The translations under genes were made by a program, and so were the position numbers. The notes beneath the pieces are model-generated. The model was not told the DNA's origin and did no database searches. It worked only from the letters and a program-made list of their open reading frames with translations. 64,000 nucleotides of DNA from Candidatus Buchananbacteria bacterium (GTDB lineage Bacteria; Patescibacteriota; Patescibacteriia; Buchananbacterales; UBA6539): positions 9,665 to 73,664 of the forward strand of contig JBAYLH010000002.1 in the NCBI GenBank assembly GCA_041664165.1, in the 5' to 3' direction. This document shows, piece after piece, positions 3,988-45,651 of this stretch. Within the stretch, counting starts at the first letter, position 1; each line of letters begins with the position of its first letter.

Positions 3988-4057
3988 AGTCGTATTAGAA
4001 ACTTAAGTAAATCAAGCTTACTGGCTTAATTTGCTTACTAGCTTAATTTACTTTTCT

Positions 4058-9462: not shown

Positions 9463-9548
9463 ATGCAATTGGTTAAATTACTTTGCTTTTTAGCCAAGCC
9501 ACAATAAACCCAATTATTTGGCTTTTGTGGATAAGTTAGGCCAAATAT

Positions 9549-9577: not shown

Positions 9578-9680
9578 AAGTTTTAGCTTTTAGCGCCGGC
9601 CGCTATTTTTTTAATATCATTATCGGCAGCGGCAAACAAACATTTTTTTAATTTTTAAATCAAAGTATAAATCAAAACTT

Positions 9681-13406: not shown

Positions 13407-13441
13407 CCTAATAACCTAAAACCTAACTTCCTAATTTCTAA
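13407..13441. repeat. CCTAA-period microrepeat (stop codons in all frames)
   Basis: cctaataacctaaaacctaacttcctaatttctaa between nucleotidyltransferase gene and serS. Confidence 0.6.
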
Positions 13442-20008: not shown

Positions 20009-20668
20009 TTATTTATTGATTTTTTTGTATAAAAGGTATGAGTAAATCATTGGGAATAACGAGACAATGGTAATTCCAGCAATGAAAGAATACCAAAATA
20101 ATTCAGCGGGCAGAAATGAGCCGAAAATCATAAATAAACCCATCAGCATGAATAATTTTCCGCCCAAGCGGTGGGTTTTATTCCAGACTTGTTCATTAGA
20201 CAAAGTCCAGGGGGTCCGAATGCCCATAAACCAATTAGACTTAATCTTACCCATGTAGTTGCCCAGAATTAAAAATAACAGGCCAACAATTGTCGGGACA
20301 ACAACGTTAACTGGCAGCTCGTAGCCCAACCCGGCTAAACCGGTATAAAAATAAATTGCGACCATAAAACCAATAAAAAAGTTTTTAAAAATATGGTAGA
20401 CTTTGGCAAATTCAAGATAATGCTCTTTTTTAGGATCAAGATAAGGTAAACCTAAAAATAAGAGATAAAGGCCGAAAATTAAGCCGGGGAAAAAGAAAGC
20501 GGCAAATCCCTTGCCTGACCAGCCATCGATTTGACCCCGGTAATTCCAGTGAGTCGGAACTTTTTCGGGAAAATTAGCATAAAAATAAAAGCTGGCAAAC
20601 ACACTTAGAATAATTAAAATCACTGGGATAAATTCGGTTTTTAAAGTTGGTTTTATCGGACTGCTCAT
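20009..20668 (-). CDS. sdpI: SdpI/YhfL-family membrane immunity/signalling protein
   Basis: Polytopic 219 aa with family-typical N-terminal HWN..G..DGW motif; cotranscribed with ArsR regulator. Confidence 0.7.
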   Translation of the reverse strand: MSSPIKPTLKTEFIPVILIILSVFASFYFYANFPEKVPTHWNYRGQIDGWSGKGFAAFFFPGLIFGLYLLFLGLPYLDPKKEHYLEFAKVYHIFKNFFIGFMVAIYFYTGLAGLGYELPVNVVVPTIVGLLFLILGNYMGKIKSNWFMGIRTPWTLSNEQVWNKTHRLGGKLFMLMGLFMIFGSFLPAELFWYSFIAGITIVSLFPMIYSYLLYKKINK

Positions 20669-20946
20669 AATTTTTTAGCTTTATTTTTATTAAAAAAATT
20701 ATATAATTCTTCGGCGATTTCTTCAAAAACGCTCAAATTCAGCGAATAAATTATCTGCTGCCCCATCCTCTGAGTTGAGACTAAATTGGCATTTTTTAAC
20801 GTGGTTAAATGATGTGAGAGTGAGGGCAAAGTAATCTCAAAATTAACGGCGATTTCATTGACTGGCAAATCCTTTTTTTTAAGCAATTGCAGGATTTTTC
20901 TCCGGGTCGGATCAGATAAGGCGGTAAAAGTGTTATTAAGAGTCAT
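20665..20946 (-). CDS. sdpR: ArsR-family HTH transcriptional regulator (SdpR-like)
   Basis: LSDPTRRKIL...HLTTL ArsR signature; overlaps sdpI start by 4 nt. Confidence 0.75.
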   Translation of the reverse strand: MTLNNTFTALSDPTRRKILQLLKKKDLPVNEIAVNFEITLPSLSHHLTTLKNANLVSTQRMGQQIIYSLNLSVFEEIAEELYNFFNKNKAKKL

Positions 20947-21056
20947 AGCTTCCCTTTCTTGGATAAATTAGGCGATTTTTATTTAGATATTTAGACAAGT
21001 ATCTAAATAGTATAACAAAAAAATAAGGCCGTCAAATTAATTTATCCACAATCGGT

Positions 21057-21799: not shown

Positions 21800-23092
21800 T
21801 TACAAGGCCGGCAAATATTCCAAGGGATTAACCGGAATGCCGTTTAATCGGACTTCAAAATGAAGATGAGGCCCGGTTGTTAACGGTCCGGCGCCCGGAC
21901 TGCCGGGTAAACCGCCTGATAAGCCGATTACCTGGCCTTTGGTTACGTAAGCATCTCCTTTAACGTAAACTGCCGAGACATGGCCAAAAACAGTGGAAAG
22001 GCCGTCGTTATGGATTAACATAATATAAGCATAGCTTTTGTCGCCTTTAAATTGAATTCGCGCGACGTAGCCGTTTTCCGGGGCTTTAATCGGCGTGCCT
22101 TGGCCGGCCCGGATGTCAATGGCCGGATGTTCAAAAATATAGCGAAAGGGGTAATCGGGGTCATGGAAATAAGCGGAAATTCCCCGGCCTGGTGAAACCG
22201 GCCAGCCTAGCCGGGCCGGACCGAAATCCTGGAATCTTTGGTTTTGTTCCTGTTCTTCCAATTTTTTCCGAACGGTTTTTTCGAGCGTGGCAATATCAGC
22301 ATTGATTTGCTGCTGTTCTAGCTGTAATTGGTAGGTATATTTTTGGTATTGTCTTTCAGTCAGTTTAGCTTGGGAAAAAAGGATTTGTTTGGCATTATTT
22401 TTTTCGGTTAATTCTGATTTTTGTTCCTGGAGCTGGGTTTTTAAATCTTCTTCAAGTTTTGCTTTGATTTCCCAGCTGGCTTTTTCGGTTTGTAAATCTT
22501 TTTGGTTGCCTTTCAATTTATCAACGGTATTTTTCAAGTTGGTATGAATTTCTTGGGTGTATTTTATTTGGTCAAAAAAATCAGAGAAAGAGTCGTTGAC
22601 CAAAAGTATTTTTAAATAGCCGACTTGGTCGTTACGGTTGATTAAGCGGATATAGCCGGCGATTTTTTGCTTGTTGTCGGCAATTTTATCTTCAATCTCT
22701 TTAATCTGCAAATTCAATTTTTGGATTTCTAAATTAGTTTGTTCGATTTTCATCTCGGTTGTCTCAATATCCAAATTAACTTTAGCCACTTCATTTTCTA
22801 AAATCGCAATTTGATTTTGCAGGCCTTTGGCTTCCTGCTGTTTGCTTTTAATCTGGTCGGCGTAAGCGTCAACTTCTTTTTGTAAAATATCAATTTGTTT
22901 GCGCCGGTCTTCGATTTTGTTGTTTAGTTCGGCGATGTCATCAGGTTTATTTTCTACCGTAGCCGAACCATCAATTGCCGCGGCGGAAATAATTTTTGGC
23001 AAAACCGAAAAACCAGCGATTATAAAGCTGAGGATTAGGCTGGTTACTAATATTTTCGCCCGGTTTATTTTTGGTTTTTTATTTTGGGTCAT
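21800..23092 (-). CDS. M23/LytM-family peptidase with N-terminal coiled coil (EnvC-like)
   Basis: Signal/TM, long coiled coil, C-terminal M23 motifs (HxxxD ... HLHFEV). Confidence 0.8.
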   Translation of the reverse strand: MTQNKKPKINRAKILVTSLILSFIIAGFSVLPKIISAAAIDGSATVENKPDDIAELNNKIEDRRKQIDILQKEVDAYADQIKSKQQEAKGLQNQIAILENEVAKVNLDIETTEMKIEQTNLEIQKLNLQIKEIEDKIADNKQKIAGYIRLINRNDQVGYLKILLVNDSFSDFFDQIKYTQEIHTNLKNTVDKLKGNQKDLQTEKASWEIKAKLEEDLKTQLQEQKSELTEKNNAKQILFSQAKLTERQYQKYTYQLQLEQQQINADIATLEKTVRKKLEEQEQNQRFQDFGPARLGWPVSPGRGISAYFHDPDYPFRYIFEHPAIDIRAGQGTPIKAPENGYVARIQFKGDKSYAYIMLIHNDGLSTVFGHVSAVYVKGDAYVTKGQVIGLSGGLPGSPGAGPLTTGPHLHFEVRLNGIPVNPLEYLPAL

Positions 23093-25445: not shown

Positions 25446-25480
25446 AGGTTAGGTGCTAGGGATTAGGTGTTAGGAGCTAA
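25446..25480. repeat. TTAGG/CCTAA microrepeat overlapping stop of thpR
   Basis: ggttaggtgctagggattaggtgttaggagctaa; the thpR TAA stop lies inside the repeat. Confidence 0.6.
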
Positions 25481-26064: not shown

Positions 26065-26952
26065 ATGACCGAGGCATTATTTTATAAAAAATCGGCAGAA
26101 AATCAGGTGAAGTGCGAATTATGCCATCAGTTTTGCCAAATTGCCGCCGGCCAGCGCGGTTTATGCGGCGTAAGGGAAAATCAAAACGGAATTTTGCAGA
26201 CTTTGGTTTACGGCAAAGTCATTGCCGCTCATATTGACCCGATCGAAAAAAAACCGCTTTACCATTTTTTGCCCAAAACCCAAACTTATTCTTTGGCGAC
26301 AGTGGGTTGTAATTTCCGCTGTGCTCACTGCCAAAATGCCGATATTTCCCAGGCTTCTAAAGAGGGCTATTTTTTTGAAAAAAAAGAAATCCCGGGAACA
26401 GATATGACTCCCCGGCAAGTCGTTGAGCAAGCCAAAAAATTTAGTTGTCCCAGTATTTCTTATACCTACACCGAGCCGACGATTTTTTTTGAATTCGCCC
26501 TTGACTGCATGAAATTGGCGGCAGAAAATAAGCTAAAAAATATCTGGGTTTCCAATGGTTACACTGGCTCCCCGGCCCTGGAAATGGCGAAGCCCTATTT
26601 GGACGCGGTTAATATTGATTTGAAATTTTTTAAAGAAGCTACCTACCAAAAAATTTGCGGGGCGAAACTGCAGCCGGTTTTGGACAATTTAGTCTGGTAT
26701 AAGAAAAATAACATCTGGCTGGAAGTAACCACTTTGATTATTCCGACTTTGAATGACAGCGACGAGGAGCTGGGCTTGATTGCAAAGTTTATAAAAGATA
26801 AACTAGGTTGTAATACTCCCTGGCACGTTACTGCTTTTTTTCCGACTTACCGGCTGGACAATTTGCCGCCTATGAATCGGGAAACTATTTTTAAGGCGAA
26901 GGCGATCGGTGAAAAAGCCGGGCTTTTGCACGTTTATATTGGAAATATCTAG
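26065..26952 (+). CDS. AmmeMemoRadiSam-system radical SAM enzyme
   Basis: CNFRCAHCQN CxxxCxxC cluster and family-typical N-terminal Cys pair. Confidence 0.75.
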   Translation: MTEALFYKKSAENQVKCELCHQFCQIAAGQRGLCGVRENQNGILQTLVYGKVIAAHIDPIEKKPLYHFLPKTQTYSLATVGCNFRCAHCQNADISQASKEGYFFEKKEIPGTDMTPRQVVEQAKKFSCPSISYTYTEPTIFFEFALDCMKLAAENKLKNIWVSNGYTGSPALEMAKPYLDAVNIDLKFFKEATYQKICGAKLQPVLDNLVWYKKNNIWLEVTTLIIPTLNDSDEELGLIAKFIKDKLGCNTPWHVTAFFPTYRLDNLPPMNRETIFKAKAIGEKAGLLHVYIGNI

Positions 26953-26954
26953 CC

Positions 26955-28301
26955 ATGAAAAAAATTTTAAAAAAAATTATCGTTTTCAGCGCTTTAGCCG
27001 CCATTGCCATGCCGCAATTGGCGCAAGCGGATTTTTATTTTAATCCCCATTATATTATCAGCGACGAGGAAATCAGCGATTATCAATGTCTGTCTTTGGG
27101 CGGGATTCAGCAATTTTTGGAAAGCCAGGGCAGCGCTTTGGCCAGCCGGTATTTTTTGGATTATCAGGGAGTCAACAAACGGGCATCAGAAATAATCTGG
27201 CAGGCGGCTTTGGAAAGCAAAATTAGCCCTAAGCTTTTATTGGCGACTTTGCAAAAAGAGCAAAGTTTGATTGGAGATCCTTCGCCCAGCCAAAATCAGC
27301 TCGATAAAGCCATGGGCTACCGCTGTCCGGATAGCGGTGGCTGCAACCCCAAAGCGGCGGGGTTTGGCAAACAGGTTGATGGCGCGGCCTGGCAGTTTCG
27401 GCAGTATCTTGATAACCCTTTTAACTGGACTTTTCAAGCCGGCCAACTTTTTGATATCGATGGCTATCTGATCACCCCGGTCAATCAAGCGACCGCGGCT
27501 TTGTATAATTATACGCCTCATTATTCCGGCAACCGGCACTTCTGGCAGATTTGGCAAGACTACTGGGGCCGGGATTTTCCCGACGGCTCGCTGCTTAAAG
27601 CCGACGGCAGCCCGGCAGTTTGGCTTTTGCAATACGGAACCAAAAGACTGATTACGTCATACGGCATTTTGCTTTCCCGTTTTGACCCGAAAAAGATTTT
27701 GATAGTTTCCAAAACTGACTTGGAAAAATACGAAACCGGGCCGTCGATGAAGTTTTATAATTACTCTTTGCTTGGCTTGCCCGATGGTAGCATTTATCTT
27801 TTGGTTGATGATGTTTTGCATCACATTGCGACGCCGGAAGTTTTCAAAACCATCGGCTTTAACTGGGAGGAAGTCATGCCGGCCGATGTCAAAGATTTAG
27901 CGGGTTACAGCTATGGTTCGGAAATTACGGTCAGCAGCGTTTATCCCACCGGCGCGCTTTTGCAAAATAAAAAAACCGGCGGCGTGTATTATATTGAAAA
28001 TGGCATCAAAATGCCGATTATCGCCAAAGAAATTTTAGCGGCTAATTTTAAACAGAAAGTTTTAACGCCGGTTAGCCAAGAAGAGCTTGATAAGTATCAA
28101 ACTGGCGATCCGGTCAAATTCCGAGACGGTGAATTAATCCGTTCTGCGACCGACTCCCGAGTTTACGTAATTTCCGGCGGTTATCGGCGCTGGGTTAAAA
28201 GCGAAAAAGCATTTGCTAAATTTGGCTATAAATGGGATAATATAATTACGACGACTCAAGCCGCGGTTGAACTTCAGCCGCTGGGAGCCGATATTGAATA
28301 A
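26955..28301 (+). CDS. secreted protein with C-terminal G-x-IY-L repeats
   Basis: Signal peptide; repeats DGSIYLL../GGVYYIENG../DSRVYVISGG similar to those of 14769-15902. Confidence 0.55.
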   Translation: MKKILKKIIVFSALAAIAMPQLAQADFYFNPHYIISDEEISDYQCLSLGGIQQFLESQGSALASRYFLDYQGVNKRASEIIWQAALESKISPKLLLATLQKEQSLIGDPSPSQNQLDKAMGYRCPDSGGCNPKAAGFGKQVDGAAWQFRQYLDNPFNWTFQAGQLFDIDGYLITPVNQATAALYNYTPHYSGNRHFWQIWQDYWGRDFPDGSLLKADGSPAVWLLQYGTKRLITSYGILLSRFDPKKILIVSKTDLEKYETGPSMKFYNYSLLGLPDGSIYLLVDDVLHHIATPEVFKTIGFNWEEVMPADVKDLAGYSYGSEITVSSVYPTGALLQNKKTGGVYYIENGIKMPIIAKEILAANFKQKVLTPVSQEELDKYQTGDPVKFRDGELIRSATDSRVYVISGGYRRWVKSEKAFAKFGYKWDNIITTTQAAVELQPLGADIE

Positions 28302-28309
28302 ATAAATTT

Positions 28310-29107
28310 ATGCCTATAGTTTTTGCGGCGATTACGCCCCATCCGCCGGTTTTAATTCCGGAAATCGGCAAGGATAACGTAAAAAAAATCGATAAAACCC
28401 TGCAGGCGTTCAAGAAACTGGAGCAGGATTTTTACGCCTCAAAACCGGAAAGCGTGGTGATAATTTCGCCCCACGGAAAAATTTTGCCTGATTCTTTCAG
28501 CATCAACTTGAATTCCGATTACGCGGCGAACTTTAAGGAATTCGGCGATTTCGGCCTGGAATTAAAATTCAAAAGCGATTACATGTCGATTCAGGAAATT
28601 CGAGCCGCCGATGAAACCAACCAGGCCGTGCCGATAGTTTTAACCAGCGAAAAAGAAATTGATCACGGTTTTTCCATCCCCCTTTATTTTTTGACGAGCC
28701 ATTTGAAAAATATTCCGATCATTCCGCTGACTTATTCCGGCTTGAATTATCAGCAGCATTTCGCTTTCGGCCAGTTTTTGCATCGGCAGCTGGCGAAAAT
28801 CAACAAACGTTTCGCCATTATCGCTTCGGGCGACTTGTCTCATCGGCTGACCAAAGACGCTCCGGGCGGATTTTCGGCCGAGGGCAAAAAATTTGATAAA
28901 AAGCTGGTTGATTTGATAAAAAAGAAAGATACGCAAGGTATTTTGAATCTCGATCAGGAATTAGTAAAACAAGCCGGCGAATGCGGCTTGCGGTCAGTGG
29001 TTACTTTGCTGGGAATTTTGGATGATTTGAACGTCAAGCCGGAGGTGCTGTCTTACGAAGGGCCGTTTGGCGTCGGTTATTTAGTCTGCAATTTTAAGTT
29101 AGTGTAG
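28310..29107 (+). CDS. LigB/MEMO1-superfamily protein (AmmeMemoRadiSam protein B-like / class III extradiol dioxygenase fold)
   Basis: N-terminal AAITPHPP, ISPHG and GDLSHRL His motifs of the LigB/Memo fold. Confidence 0.6.
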   Translation: MPIVFAAITPHPPVLIPEIGKDNVKKIDKTLQAFKKLEQDFYASKPESVVIISPHGKILPDSFSINLNSDYAANFKEFGDFGLELKFKSDYMSIQEIRAADETNQAVPIVLTSEKEIDHGFSIPLYFLTSHLKNIPIIPLTYSGLNYQQHFAFGQFLHRQLAKINKRFAIIASGDLSHRLTKDAPGGFSAEGKKFDKKLVDLIKKKDTQGILNLDQELVKQAGECGLRSVVTLLGILDDLNVKPEVLSYEGPFGVGYLVCNFKLV

Positions 29108-29190
29108 GTGAGTTGGTAAGTTTGTAAGTTTTTAAGTTGGTAAGTTACTAAGTTTATAAGTTTGTAAGTTGGTAAGTTTTTTAGGCGGCG
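29104..29190. repeat. 8-nt period tandem repeat NNTAAGTT x ~10
   Basis: ttggtaagtt tgtaagtt tttaagtt ggtaagtt actaagtt tataagtt ...; TAA every 8 nt closes all three frames. Confidence 0.7.
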
Positions 29191-29207
29191 GCTGGCTTGG
29201 GTGCCAG

Positions 29208-29471
29208 CTATTTTTTAGTTATCAATTTGAAAAAGTATTTCCATTTTTCGCCGGTTTGGCAAAGCTCTTTAGTCTCATTGAGGCATTTTTCGACAAAATC
29301 TTTGGTGTTTTCTTTGCAGATTTTGAAAACGGAGTTTCTTTTAAAAGTCGGAATAGCCAAATCATCGATTATTTTCAAAGCAAAATCCTGCCAGGGATAA
29401 GCCGGCGGTTTGATGGTCTTTTTTTTCGCCATAATGTCTTTGAAATTTTGCGGACCCAAGTCAATTGTCAT
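29208..29471 (-). CDS. hypothetical small soluble protein (87 aa, 3 Cys)
   Basis: Start moved to ATG (MTIDLGPQNF); last gene of minus-strand small-protein operon. Confidence 0.4.
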   Translation of the reverse strand: MTIDLGPQNFKDIMAKKKTIKPPAYPWQDFALKIIDDLAIPTFKRNSVFKICKENTKDFVEKCLNETKELCQTGEKWKYFFKLITKK

Positions 29472-29523
29472 AATATTTAGACTATAGCAGATTAAAGCAA
29501 TAAAAAAAAGCCAGCCAAAACTC

Positions 29524-29733
29524 TTAGCCAAGGGCGTCGTCAATCTGCTGACAAATAAACACGATGACGCCAAAGAGTAAAGTAATGACTAGCTGCAAGC
29601 CAGTTGGGCTTTTGATTCTTTTTGCGGCATGCCTTTTGATTTCTTCAGCGACCAGGTAGGCATTGGTACTGAAATAGGCCGCCAGGAAAATCGAGCCAAC
29701 AATTGATGCTGCCAGCCAGACCCAGCTAACCAT
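29524..29733 (-). CDS. small membrane protein (69 aa, 2 TM)
   Basis: GGAGG SD 6 nt upstream; hydrophobic. Confidence 0.5.
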   Translation of the reverse strand: MVSWVWLAASIVGSIFLAAYFSTNAYLVAEEIKRHAAKRIKSPTGLQLVITLLFGVIVFICQQIDDALG

Positions 29734-29755
29734 AGTTAGCCTCCTTTCTTTCTGG

Positions 29756-29917
29756 TTATAGTTCGTAGTGACCAGGGAATTGCTTCTGGCGTTTAGCAGG
29801 TACTTCTTCGTCCGCTCGAATGTCGGTTAAGACTTGGACGAAGCGTAAGCCGATAGCTACCACAACTACCAGCGCGGCCATAATCGCAATAACTACCGCT
29901 ATGGTTTCAAGGATCAT
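29756..29917 (-). CDS. small membrane peptide (53 aa, 1 TM) not in ORF track
   Basis: GGAGGAAAAACC SD then ATG (MILETIAVVIAIMAALVVVV...); below 60-aa ORF cutoff; coordinates +/-1. Confidence 0.45.
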   Translation of the reverse strand: MILETIAVVIAIMAALVVVVAIGLRFVQVLTDIRADEEVPAKRQKQFPGHYEL

Positions 29918-29960
29918 TGGTTTTTCCTCCAAAGTTGGATGCTCCTTTCAGACTAGTTAA

Positions 29961-29989
29961 ATTTTAGTCAATTGAGGTTTGAAAGTCAA
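29961..29989 (-). promoter_or_regulatory. sigma70-type promoter for minus-strand small-peptide operon
   Basis: On minus strand: TTGACT-17 nt-TAAAAT. Confidence 0.45.
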
Positions 29990-30011
29990 TTTTTTTCAAA
30001 AAATAATAATT

Positions 30012-30075
30012 TATCCCCACAAATCCCTTGACACTATCTTTTTGAAAGGTTAGAATATATTTTTCCCCACAAAAC
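30012..30075 (+). promoter_or_regulatory. sigma70 promoter flanked by two CCCCACAAA boxes
   Basis: TTGACA(30027)-17 nt-TAGAAT(30050); ATCCCCACAAA at 30012 and TTCCCCACAAAA at 30063; downstream hairpin TCCCCA...TGGGGA. Confidence 0.55.
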
Positions 30076-30137
30076 TTTTTCAATTTTTTGGGGATTTTAA
30101 TTTCTTCAATAATATTAACAAATTAAAACAAAAATTA

Positions 30138-30275
30138 ATGAAACAAAATTTTGACTCAATCGTCAGCGAACTGAGATTTTATCTGACCCGGCAGTTGGAA
30201 GCTTACCAAAAAAGCGATAATGTGACTTACTCGCAGCTGGAAGAAAAGATTTTGGAACTGGAAAAGAAATTATAA
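30138..30275 (+). CDS. possible small coiled-coil protein (45 aa)
   Basis: ATG ORF downstream of promoter, no clear SD. Confidence 0.25.
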   Translation: MKQNFDSIVSELRFYLTRQLEAYQKSDNVTYSQLEEKILELEKKL

Positions 30276-30321
30276 ACTTAATCAATATTATGTTATAATA
30301 TCGATAGGTCATCTTTAAATT

Positions 30322-30819
30322 ATGCCTAAAATATTGCCAATCAAAATTTATCCTTGTCCGGGTTTGCGCCAAAAATCACAGGTTTTAAAAACCGAGGAGC
30401 TGGGGAATAAAGAAATTAAGCAGCTGATTTCAGATATGGAAAAGACGATGGTTGAAAAAGACGGCATCGGCCTGGCCGCGCCGCAAGTCGGCAAAAATCT
30501 CCGAATCGTGGTGATTAGCACGGCTGACGGTTCTTTGGTTTTAATTAATCCGAAGATTTTAAGGAAATCCTGGCGAACGGAAATTCAAGAAGAAGGCTGC
30601 TTGAGCTTTCCGGAAATTTTTGGTTTGGTGAAGCGTTCGCTCAAAATTAAATTAGTTGCTTTAGACCGAACTGGCAAAAAAATAAAGTTCAAAGCTAGCG
30701 GCTTATTTGCCCGCGTCATCCAGCACGAAGTCGATCATTTGGACGGAATTTTATTTATTGACAAGGCGAAAGAAATTGTTAAGGGTAAAGACAAATTAGC
30801 CGGTCTGGAAAAAAAATAA
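30322..30819 (+). CDS. def: peptide deformylase
   Basis: GLAAPQVG, EGCLS, HEVDHLDG motifs. Confidence 0.9.
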   Translation: MPKILPIKIYPCPGLRQKSQVLKTEELGNKEIKQLISDMEKTMVEKDGIGLAAPQVGKNLRIVVISTADGSLVLINPKILRKSWRTEIQEEGCLSFPEIFGLVKRSLKIKLVALDRTGKKIKFKASGLFARVIQHEVDHLDGILFIDKAKEIVKGKDKLAGLEKK

Positions 30820-30828
30820 TTTTTCTTT

Positions 30829-31773
30829 ATGCAAGAGCTTAAACCAAAAATAATTTTTTTGGGCACGCCGGAGTTTGCCGTCCCCAGTCTTTTGGCTTTA
30901 ATCGCCAATGGTTTTAAACCGGTTTTAGCCATCACTCAACCGGATAAACCCGCCGGCCGAAAACAAGAATTGACTCCCCCGCCGATTAAGCAAGCGGCTT
31001 TACAAAACGAGATTTTAGTTTTGCAGCCACCGGCTAAAAATGATTTGGCGGAAATTTTTTTACAGTATCGGCCGGATCTCTGCGTTTTGGTCGCTTATGG
31101 TTCAATTATCCCTAAAGACTGCTTAAACCAGCCGCGCGGCGGTTTTTTAAATATCCATCCGTCGCTTTTGCCGAAATATCGCGGGTCATCGCCGATTCAG
31201 ACAGCGATTTTAAACGGCGAAAAAGAAACCGGCGTTTCCATTATCCAATTGGTTTCCCAAGTTGACGCCGGGCCAATTATTGCCCAAAAAACCATGGCGA
31301 TAGCGGAGACTGATAACGCCGAAACTTTAAGTAAAAAGTTAGCCGAACTCGGCGCTGAGCTGTTAATAGAAATTTTAGCGAACTATTTGGCCGGAAGAAT
31401 TTTGCCCAAACCCCAGGACGAATCCAAGGCGACCTTTACGGCCATGATCAGTCGGGAAGACGGCCAAATCAATTGGCAAAAAACCGCCGCGGAAATCCAG
31501 CGGCAATTTCGGGCTTTTTATCCTTGGCCAGGGGTATTTACCCAAATCTCTGGCCAGCGCCTTAAAATCGCAAATTTGAGCGTTTTAGAGGGCAATTTTA
31601 GCGCTAAATTGGTACCGGGGGCGATATTTTTCGGGCCTCAAGGCGAGCTGGCAGTCAGCTGCGGCCAAGGGGCAGTTGAGCTAAAAACCGTGCAGCCGGC
31701 CGGTAAAAAAGAAATGCCCGGCATTGAATTTTTACGCGGGCAAAAAGATTTAATAAGTAAGGTTTTAAAATAA
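30829..31773 (+). CDS. fmt: methionyl-tRNA formyltransferase
   Basis: Formyltransferase N-domain (HPSLLPKYRG) plus C-terminal domain; def-fmt synteny. Confidence 0.9.
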   Translation: MQELKPKIIFLGTPEFAVPSLLALIANGFKPVLAITQPDKPAGRKQELTPPPIKQAALQNEILVLQPPAKNDLAEIFLQYRPDLCVLVAYGSIIPKDCLNQPRGGFLNIHPSLLPKYRGSSPIQTAILNGEKETGVSIIQLVSQVDAGPIIAQKTMAIAETDNAETLSKKLAELGAELLIEILANYLAGRILPKPQDESKATFTAMISREDGQINWQKTAAEIQRQFRAFYPWPGVFTQISGQRLKIANLSVLEGNFSAKLVPGAIFFGPQGELAVSCGQGAVELKTVQPAGKKEMPGIEFLRGQKDLISKVLK

Positions 31774-35846: not shown

Positions 35847-35905
35847 TTTATTTTAGTAATTAGGTTTTAGGTTCTAGGACTAACTTTTTAATACCTAGTA
35901 CCGAT

Positions 35906-36583: not shown

Positions 36584-36665
36584 GGGTTAGGGATTAGGGG
36601 TTAGGTAGTTAGGTATTAGGTAATAGGTGCTAGGTATTAGGGGTTAGGAGGTTAGAGGTTGTTCC
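36584..36665. repeat. TTAGG-type degenerate tandem repeat (~11 units)
   Basis: gggttagggattaggggttaggtagttaggtattaggtaataggtgctaggtattaggggttaggaggttagagg; TAG on + and TAA on - in all frames. Confidence 0.7.
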
Positions 36666-45098: not shown

Positions 45099-45651
45099 GA
45101 TAATTTACCCCGGCATCGCCGCTAAAGCAATTGACCGCCTGGCAGGTTTTACCCGCTGAGCAATCGCTATCAGCCGTGCAGGTTTGGTAAGTAACGGTTG
45201 ACGGCGGGTTGGTACCGCAGGAGTTGCCGCCTTCCGGAGTCGGACCGCAAGGCGTTTCGACGCAGGTAACTTCAGTTTTTGCCCTTTGGCTTTTTTGGCA
45301 TTCGCCGCGAAAATAGGCCCATTCGTCGCATTTACTACCATCGGCAAAAACGCAGACTCCGGATTGGCTGCCATCATCAGCAGTCACGATCTGCGAATTG
45401 CCGCCATGATCTTTGCAGTAAACTGAGGCGGGATTAGCCAAGCCAGCGTTAGTATTAGTATCAATATTAGTGTTTTGGTCGGCTGTTGCCCCCGGGCAAG
45501 GCGTAGTCGGTTGACTGGCATCAGGGTGGCCATGTTTAACCCACTCGCCGCTAACGCAAATCCAGGTGTCCTCGCTGCCACGGATAAATAATAAAGCGCC
45601 GGCTAAAACCAGTAAAACAACAATCGCGATTAAAATATAGCTTTTTTTCAT
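45085..45651 (-). CDS. secreted Cys-rich protein with DUF333-like module
   Basis: NPASVYC..GG....DGS..GVCVF.DGSKCDEWAYFRGEC pattern. Confidence 0.55.
   Translation of the reverse strand: MKKSYILIAIVVLLVLAGALLFIRGSEDTWICVSGEWVKHGHPDASQPTTPCPGATADQNTNIDTNTNAGLANPASVYCKDHGGNSQIVTADDGSQSGVCVFADGSKCDEWAYFRGECQKSQRAKTEVTCVETPCGPTPEGGNSCGTNPPSTVTYQTCTADSDCSAGKTCQAVNCFSGDAGVNYHVCK

Follow-up and report, generated by a model that had tools for sequence, protein, structure and literature searches.

A putative divergent control region with several transcription units between p87 and def-fmt in a Candidatus Buchananbacteria genome

The region between 29.2 and 30.3 kb of the DNA analysed here, a stretch of 64,000 nucleotides (nt) from a Candidatus Buchananbacteria bacterium (assembly GCA_041664165.1, contig JBAYLH010000002.1, positions 9,665 to 73,664; hereafter the window), carries genes for four small proteins, p53, p69, p87 and p45, named by their lengths in amino acids (aa), next to the genes def and fmt. 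We consider it, with a probability of about 0.6, to be a divergent control region with four transcription units, and not a single operon facing def-fmt. In this arrangement, a strong minus-strand promoter would produce a bicistronic p53-p69 messenger RNA (mRNA) ending at a hairpin and U8 terminator, p87 would, as judged from conservation, have an extended -10 promoter to itself and a leaderless mRNA, a plus-strand promoter would transcribe p45 with read-through into def-fmt and carry two conserved cis elements, and def would have a promoter of its own. An initial annotation had described the two divergent promoters (plus strand, 30028-30056; minus strand, 29989-29961), two CCCCACAAA direct repeats with a TCCCCA/TGGGGA hairpin, three open reading frames (ORFs) of 53, 69 and 87 aa, the first with a GGAGG Shine-Dalgarno sequence (SD), and an 8-mer array at 29111-29181, and each of these is indeed present in the DNA. 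It is in how they are joined, and in what lies between the plus promoter and def, that our reading differs. The features that matter for the argument are the following.

29208-29471, minus strand: p87, 87 aa
29489-29481, minus strand: extended -10 element TGCTATAGT of p87, 9 nt before the ATG; p87 has no SD
29524-29733, minus strand: p69, 69 aa
29535-29502, minus strand: predicted terminator after p69, a stem-loop GCC..GGCUAA-GAGUU-UUGGCU-GGC followed by U8 (RNA fold)
29756-29917, minus strand: p53, 53 aa
29989-29961, minus strand: sigma-70-type p53-p69 promoter, TTGACT-17-TAAAAT, 10 of 12 matches in the promoter scan
Between p53 and the 45-aa ORF: A+T-rich intergenic region of 220 nt
30011-30019, plus strand: upstream box TTATCCCCA, 8 nt upstream of the p45 -35, containing the first CCCCACAAA copy (30015-30023)
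30028-30056, plus strand: sigma-70-type p45 promoter, TTGACA-17-TAGAAT, 11 of 12 matches in the promoter scan
30064-30094, plus strand: leader hairpin, whose 5′ arm is the second CCCCACAAA copy
30095-30103, plus strand: leader U-tract UUUUAAUUU, directly after the hairpin
30138-30275, plus strand: p45, 45 aa
30291-30299, plus strand: candidate extended -10 element TGTTATAAT of def, 22 nt before the def ATG (direct reading)
30322-30819, plus strand: def (Pfam Pep_deformylase, 3e-48)
30829-31773, plus strand: fmt (Pfam Formyl_trans_N and Formyl_trans_C)

The p45 gene, which the initial annotation overlooked when it placed the peptide operon opposite def-fmt, lies between that promoter and def, and it is conserved. 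It is called as a gene on same-species contigs, which occur in three samples and are identical or at least 99.5% identical to the window, and its homologues are found at 14 loci in about 13 related genomes with 55-71% identity; the nearest species-level relatives are, like the source of the window, metagenome-assembled genomes, and all are named 'Patescibacteria group bacterium'. Among nine aligned sequences, nonsynonymous variation is well below synonymous variation (pN 0.27 vs pS 0.90) and codon-position variability runs 3>1>2, a pattern that indicates purifying selection on p45. The protein is acidic, and its AlphaFold2 model is a helical hairpin with helices at residues 2-26 and 29-44. A ribbon-helix-helix repressor was considered and ruled out for p45, where the model is all-helical and without an N-terminal strand. 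The def gene appears to have the additional element TGTTATAAT, with TGnTATAAT kept upstream of def in L068, L131 and L132, the three relatives inspected, and with TATAAT-like hexamers near the def ATG in other relatives.

Upstream of p45, the promoter form TTGAC(A/T)-16/17-TATAAT is conserved in most p45-carrying relatives (in L132 the -10 is TATGGA), and the box is found at the orthologous site in every p45-carrying genome, as the variant ATATCCACA in L054 and L132. The spacer between box and -35 is 8-11 nt, with 13, 20 and 29 nt in three genomes, so that the helical phase is roughly kept. From 5′ to 3′, the elements in the relatives are box, spacer, TTGAC(A/T), 16-17 nt, TATAAT, 8-49 nt, hairpin and UUUUnnUUUU, followed by a leader of about 30-45 nt that is A-rich and in most genomes lacks an SD, then p45 and then def. 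TTATCCCCA occurs once in the window. The 945 kb of related loci contain it 24 times, where permuted 9-mers have a median of 4, and most of the 24 fall on the orthologous site. The CCCCACAAA repeat has exactly two copies in the window, at 30015 and 30065 and 50 nt apart, with a window-wide expectation of 0.7; since 10 of 100 shuffles also reach at least two copies, this count alone is not significant, and it is the clustering and the conservation in relatives that matter.

The strongest evidence for assigning these elements comes from their distribution over 64 distinct divergent p87-def gaps, where two misses of the regular-expression search were checked by eye. Box and hairpin are both found in all 13 gaps that contain p45, and neither is found in any of the 51 gaps that lack it. 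In the relatives L053 and L067, box, hairpin and p45 are present and the peptides are not, while in L070 and L072 the peptides are present and box, hairpin and p45 are not. Because of this co-occurrence and these two pairs of loci, box and hairpin belong to the p45 promoter and leader, not to the peptide promoter. The initial annotation had taken the repeats and the hairpin for operator sites of the peptide operon; that they are functional conserved elements and not chance occurrences holds up, but what they track is p45 (13/13 vs 0/51).

The base changes between relatives mark the hairpin as an element of the plus-strand RNA. All 14 orthologous hairpins have a stem of 6-10 bp with a folding energy of -9.2 to -12.2 kcal/mol and are followed by UUUUnnUUUU, with the consensus (A)UCUCCCA, a loop of 4-12 nt and UGGGRGA(U); the window hairpin folds at -9.2 kcal/mol, with z = -1.7 when taken alone. 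One stem position alternates between U-A and U.G (U.G in 6 of 14), a pair that is possible in the plus-strand RNA only. L001 has two double-sided compensatory pairs (CCUCCAA/UUGGAGG), and in the window itself, where the ancestral 5′ arm is missing, the neighbouring conserved tttttCCAATtaaaa became tttttCCCCAcaaaa, restoring pairing with UGGGGA (CCAAT to CCCCA). These pair changes were read directly from the sequences, the MAFFT alignment being out of register for several of them.

Read as DNA, the inverted repeat TCTCCCA..TGGGAGA could instead be a palindrome for a dimeric repressor that binds downstream of the start site. Its arms resemble the upstream box (TTATC-CCCA vs (T)ATCTCCCA), which would place three similar sites around the promoter, and the identity between box and 5′ arm extends further in the window (CAAA) and in L001 (AGCGGT). 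We regard this as unlikely, as a fixed dimer footprint is incompatible with arms that lie anywhere from 4 to 12 nt apart, the T opposite G in 6 of 14 loci pairs only as plus-strand RNA, and the conserved U-tract always stands 3′ of the second arm. With the hairpin read as RNA, the CCCCACAAA direct repeat is the form that the box and the hairpin 5′ arm take in the window. Its CAAA extension is not conserved, L001 having the analogous shared extension AGCGGT, and the resemblance between box and 5′ arm may itself be selected.

The hairpin and U-tract would probably end a fraction of the transcripts or stabilise the 5′ end. As in the attenuators of trp, pyr and ribosomal-protein leaders, a G+C-rich stem-loop followed by a U-tract lies between a strong promoter and the first ORF, and the hairpin is conserved across species with compensatory changes. 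Unlike those leaders, the p45 leader is very short, too short for a regulated alternative structure, and no leader peptide, antiterminator, riboswitch or Rfam family was found for it (Rfam on 28900-30500 returned no family and only a chance match to a long non-coding RNA); termination at this hairpin is a sequence-based prediction, and the element could equally be a 5′ stabiliser. The label 'attenuator' is a guess, because neither an alternative antiterminator structure nor a regulator was found.

The TTATCCCCA box itself is probably a site for a DNA-binding regulator, for which p45 itself and a DnaA-like factor are the candidates. Autoregulation by p45 is a reasonable guess, since box, hairpin and p45 always appear together and the box is seldom met elsewhere. 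In the second case, TTATCCCCA and ATATCCACA would be DnaA boxes, and DnaA, acting as a transcription factor, would link p45 and def-fmt to replication status. DnaA boxes act as promoter-proximal regulatory sites at the dnaA, nrd and Bacillus subtilis sda promoters. Like these, the p45 box is a 9-mer just upstream of the -35, it fits the Escherichia coli consensus TTATCCACA at 8 of 9 positions, and a helical-hairpin protein is encoded downstream, one that we take to be reminiscent of the small helical hairpin Sda of B. subtilis. The variant ATATCCACA in L054 and L132 can be counted on the same side, as can the two perfect TTATCCACA 9-mers of the window, both of which are intergenic and just upstream of the -35 of a strong promoter. 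Unlike the known sites, however, the p45 box falls short of the full consensus, its position 7 (A to C) departing even from the relaxed consensus TTWTNCACA, and binding of DnaA to it is a prediction from its sequence. The p45 box and the other two are not oriented alike with respect to their promoters, TTATCCACA is the E. coli consensus and may not be the DnaA box of this clade, and p45 has no sequence match to any family, its fold matches being non-specific. Control by DnaA is therefore improbable in our view, with the box more generally remaining a probable regulator site of the p45 unit. The window, the retrieved loci and 10-kb extensions at either window end contain no dnaA gene.

The two perfect TTATCCACA copies are at 9526-9534 (minus strand) and 21042-21050 (plus strand), each 5-14 nt upstream of a -35. 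One is at the promoter of greA, which also has a leader hairpin and a T-run at about 9591-9612, and the other is at the promoter of an ArsR/SdpR-like gene of 93 aa (20665-20946, minus strand) and an SdpI-like gene (20009-20668, minus strand).

On the other side of the region, p87 is an independent, widely conserved gene and not an obligate member of an operon. It has 341 homologues, all from Patescibacteria and all annotated 'hypothetical', of which the best 120 are 57-79% identical to the query, and 17 columns, C52 included, are invariant across the 70 homologues that were aligned. The homology is full-length and the synteny is conserved: in about 90 loci p87 is flanked by a LigB/Memo-like gene and def. 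About ten of these loci have it in the same direction as def, in the order ligB-p87-def-fmt, and in the others the two genes are divergent. The protein is basic (pI 9.4) and predicted to form a four-helix bundle, and it has no match to PDB sequence profiles.

The p87 mRNA is probably leaderless and made from the gene's own promoter, because TGCTATAGT stands 9 nt before the ATG and the arrangement is conserved. Of 83 distinct loci, 37, with the whole close clade among them, have a TGnTATAAT upstream of p87 that ends 4-14 nt from the ATG and most often 6 or 9 nt from it, while an SD-like motif precedes p87 in only 3 of the 83. Leaderless mRNAs from extended -10 promoters are common in Actinobacteria and Deinococcus-Thermus. 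As in those groups, TGnTATAAT stands 6-9 nt before the p87 ATG without an SD, and many genes in this genome are similarly spaced; the difference is that p87 belongs to a Patescibacteria genome and that its case is made from sequence alone. The three-gene operon of the initial annotation, in which p87 followed p53 and p69, does not survive this comparison: a predicted terminator stands after p69, with the p69 stop codon embedded in its stem-loop, and p87 is preceded by the conserved TGnTATAAT and by no SD. In L132, too, an analogous terminator and then a promoter precede p87. As a separate observation, p87 always adjoins the LigB/Memo-like gene as well as def, and the LigB/Memo-like gene has a weak match to AmmeMemoRadiSam system protein B (42.8 bits); p87 may be linked to that system.

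The minus-strand promoter, whose -35 (AAAGTCAA when read on the plus strand) is conserved in peptide-carrying relatives, leads into p53 and p69. p53 has one N-terminal hydrophobic, transmembrane segment and a charged tail (grand average of hydropathicity 0.81), and its SD is a GGAGG at 29930-29926, 8 nt before the ATG; if translation began instead at a TTG at 29932, the peptide would be 58 aa long. p69 is built of two hydrophobic segments with a basic central loop, and its GGAGG stands 6 nt before the ATG. Directly after this SD, the p69 start codon lies in the loop of a perfect 6-bp hairpin in the minus-strand RNA, GCUAAC-UAUG-GUUAGC (29725-29740), and this start-codon hairpin may couple translation of p69 to that of p53.

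The initial annotation had named a lack of the peptides even in close relatives as counting against its reading, and this is the case: they are not kept even in the closest relative with the full region, L132, where p87 is 76% identical and the peptide position holds membrane ORFs of 57 and 59 aa with no sequence relation to p53 or p69. Searching about 130 related loci with tblastn, homologues were found on same-species contigs only; with the two sequences concatenated as query, a word-indexed search of 5.8e9 proteins matched only p69 itself, and a full HMMER search of 1.84e9 representatives gave p69 no credible match other than to itself. A match of p69 to a protein of 1155 aa (E = 4.7e-4, 19% identity) was taken as spurious, and a weak similarity of p53 and p69 to other peptides of relatives at this position was unconvincing in shuffled alignments (z at most 5.9, with a background 95th percentile of 4.3).

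It could be argued from this that p53 and p69 are not genes but chance ORFs, in a stretch upstream of p87 (29.5-29.95 kb) made up of a long non-coding leader or of decayed DNA. The searches made yield no homologues, the ORFs are not kept in the closest relatives, and polymorphism gives no sign of selection, there being no within-species single-nucleotide polymorphism (SNP) in 29208-30322 on which a selection test could be based. Still, we give this little credence. Two perfect GGAGG sites at optimal spacing occur here in a genome in which an SD is rare, the G+C content of p53 and p69 is 45-50% and coding-like against 28-30% in the adjacent intergenic DNA, the hydrophobic segments are of transmembrane length, the corresponding space in 18 genomes contains SD-led ORFs with a strand asymmetry of 29 vs 3, and both p53 and p69 were called by independent gene callers. 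Because of the perfect GGAGG sites in an SD-poor genome, the coding-like G+C, the hydrophobic segments and this strand asymmetry, we still consider p53 and p69 to be real, lineage-specific genes for small integral membrane proteins, and in this the initial annotation, which had treated them as translated membrane peptides, appears to have been right. Most likely, they would serve as accessory envelope or membrane-complex peptides with fast turnover.

The space between p87 and def, here termed the slot, differs in content between relatives. Most have no peptides and separate p87 from def by 50-140 nt, while others have up to five small membrane ORFs, different from those of the window. Counting the SD-led ORFs of 40 aa or more in 18 distinct long p87-def gaps, there are 29 on the p87-sense strand, of which 23 encode a transmembrane segment, and 3 on the antisense strand, of which one does. 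With same-species copies left out of the count, these ORFs form roughly 25 sequence groups, most confined to a single genome and few linking different genomes; the largest, the 'LTYPPMAWSDL..GFLRPKHW' family, spans five genomes. Ten slot peptides searched in Pfam gave no match. One speculative possibility, to which we assign a small chance, is that this space is a dedicated 'birth-and-turnover' slot, in which a conserved strong promoter serves SD-led small membrane-protein genes that are replaced or have diverged beyond recognition. If so, it would be a natural case of de novo small-gene origin, and if the slot peptides mediate envelope, host-contact or phage-exclusion specificity in these episymbionts, it would amount to a compact diversity cassette for surface and membrane peptides. 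In a few relatives, larger soluble proteins take the place of small membrane peptides in the slot, for example one of 194-238 aa, one of helical repeats that carry 'LRxEAW' and one of 197 aa in which a DNA-binding motif may be present (L006, 5307-6023; L089, 2841-3425; L097, 141-656; L126, 2155-2544; L117, 2701-3294); the slot therefore accepts varied cargo.

The toxin-antitoxin-like or holin-like role proposed in the initial annotation found no backing in family matches, in phage or endolysin neighbours or in an antisense promoter. In length (50-70 aa), in their one or two transmembrane segments and in their charged tails, p53 and p69 are like AcrZ, MgtS, KdpF and CydX, like the type I toxins Hok, TisB and Fst, and like class II/III holins, and as with such proteins their short SD-led ORFs are easily missed by annotation. 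p53 has the small, hydrophobic, single-pass form of a type I toxin without the antisense-RNA promoter or the family membership, and both peptides have the small size, the one to three transmembrane segments (two in p69, one with a charged tail in p53) and the charged C-terminus of a holin without the linkage to phage, their neighbours being the radical SAM, LigB/Memo, p87, def, fmt and histidine phosphatase genes. Unlike the known small membrane proteins, they have no sequence match to those families and no antisense RNA promoter, partner pump or kinase gene, or endolysin beside them, and they are orphans, in a slot that related genomes fill differently. None of the four small proteins has a match in Pfam, NCBIfam, PHROGs or PADLOC, and for p53 and p69 PHROGs gave none at E <= 0.1.

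The model that joins all of these elements, with the CCCCACAAA boxes and the hairpin as operators of a p53-p69-p87 operon of toxin-antitoxin-like, stress-peptide or holin-like function, is very unlikely: the size and hydrophobicity of p53 and p69 do fit type I toxins or holins, and the upstream box does stand in the space that separates the divergent promoters, at 21 nt upstream of the minus -35 and in L001, L060 and L067 only 3 nt from a minus-strand TTGAC element, but box and hairpin co-vary with p45 and not with the peptides (L053 and L067 vs L070 and L072), a terminator and a separate promoter precede p87, a consensus scan, itself a weak test, shows no plus-strand (antisense) promoter in 29524-29950, toxin, holin and defence families give no match, the genes around the peptides are housekeeping ones, none of them an endolysin or phage gene, and the strong, exposed SD sites are not those of typical type I toxins.

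Several points weigh against the arrangement in four transcription units that we prefer. Its transcription starts and terminators are deduced from consensus matches and conservation, and transcription may read through from p69 into p87. The z-scores of single hairpin sequences are modest (-0.9 to -3.9), and for the leader the folds contain no antiterminator structure. The coding status of p53 and p69 rests on ribosome-binding sites, hydrophobicity, strand asymmetry and the output of gene callers. The fold matches of p87 are non-specific, as are those of p45, for which no informative family or fold match was obtained, PDB sequence profiles included.

The genomes of Patescibacteria, part of the candidate phyla radiation (CPR), are tiny and encode few regulators that can be recognised, and how their genes are regulated has hardly been explored. 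Here, the locus offers a clean, conserved cis-regulatory module of box, promoter and leader hairpin that is tied to p45 and stands upstream of the essential def-fmt genes, along with p87, a small protein confined to the phylum and genetically locked to def, a minority class of small membrane-protein genes with a strong SD, against the probably leaderless p87 and many others, and a hypervariable slot of orphan membrane peptides. Each of these is a lead for CPR biology, and none overturns current understanding. The kinds of element concerned, namely small membrane proteins, a promoter-proximal box and a leader terminator, are known ones, and their value lies in studies of CPR gene regulation and in the annotation of small proteins.

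The remaining features of the neighbourhood lie at and beyond the p87 stop codon.

26065-26952, plus strand: radical SAM gene
26955-28301, plus strand: unknown gene of 448 aa
28310-29107, plus strand: LigB/Memo-like gene
29111-29181: 8-mer array of GTAAGTTN, about 8.6 copies, between the LigB/Memo-like stop codon and the terminator of that gene
29190-29209, plus strand: intrinsic terminator, GGCTGGC..GCCAGCT followed by ATTTTTT (terminator scan and direct reading)

The terminator at 29190-29209, which overlaps the stop codon of p87, serves the LigB/Memo-like gene on the plus strand and has no U-tract on the minus strand. The GTAAGTTN array has a period of 8 with 81% matches (Tandem Repeats Finder), is not present at the same place in L001 and contains one strain SNP, at 29140; it is species-specific and lies outside the peptide unit. 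The 448-aa gene, flanked by the radical SAM and LigB/Memo-like genes (26065-29107), encodes a protein that matches no family and whose N-terminus resembles a signal peptide. This protein is strain-variable and probably surface-located; 21 of the 22 differences between the window and the same-species contig L048 fall in this gene, with the neighbouring genes identical.

Across the window, an SD-like motif precedes only about 9 of 66 long ORFs, and many genes have a TATAAT-like hexamer that ends 6-9 nt before the ATG, for example at 23092 (minus strand), 26026 (minus strand), 26065 (plus strand) and 47197 (minus strand). The scarcity of SD motifs together with these hexamers suggests that leaderless mRNAs are widespread in this genome. 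Short tandem arrays of 7-8-mers (GTTAGGT, TTAGGTA, GGGTTAG, GTAAGTTN) are also common in the intergenic DNA of the window, at 4015-4053, 13407-13426, 25448-25474, 29111-29181, 35860-35878, 36584-36660 and 45449-45471. Several are directly upstream of start codons, where the sense strand reads as C/A-rich leaders of the 'CCTAA' type, and the arrays may act as SD-independent translation leaders.

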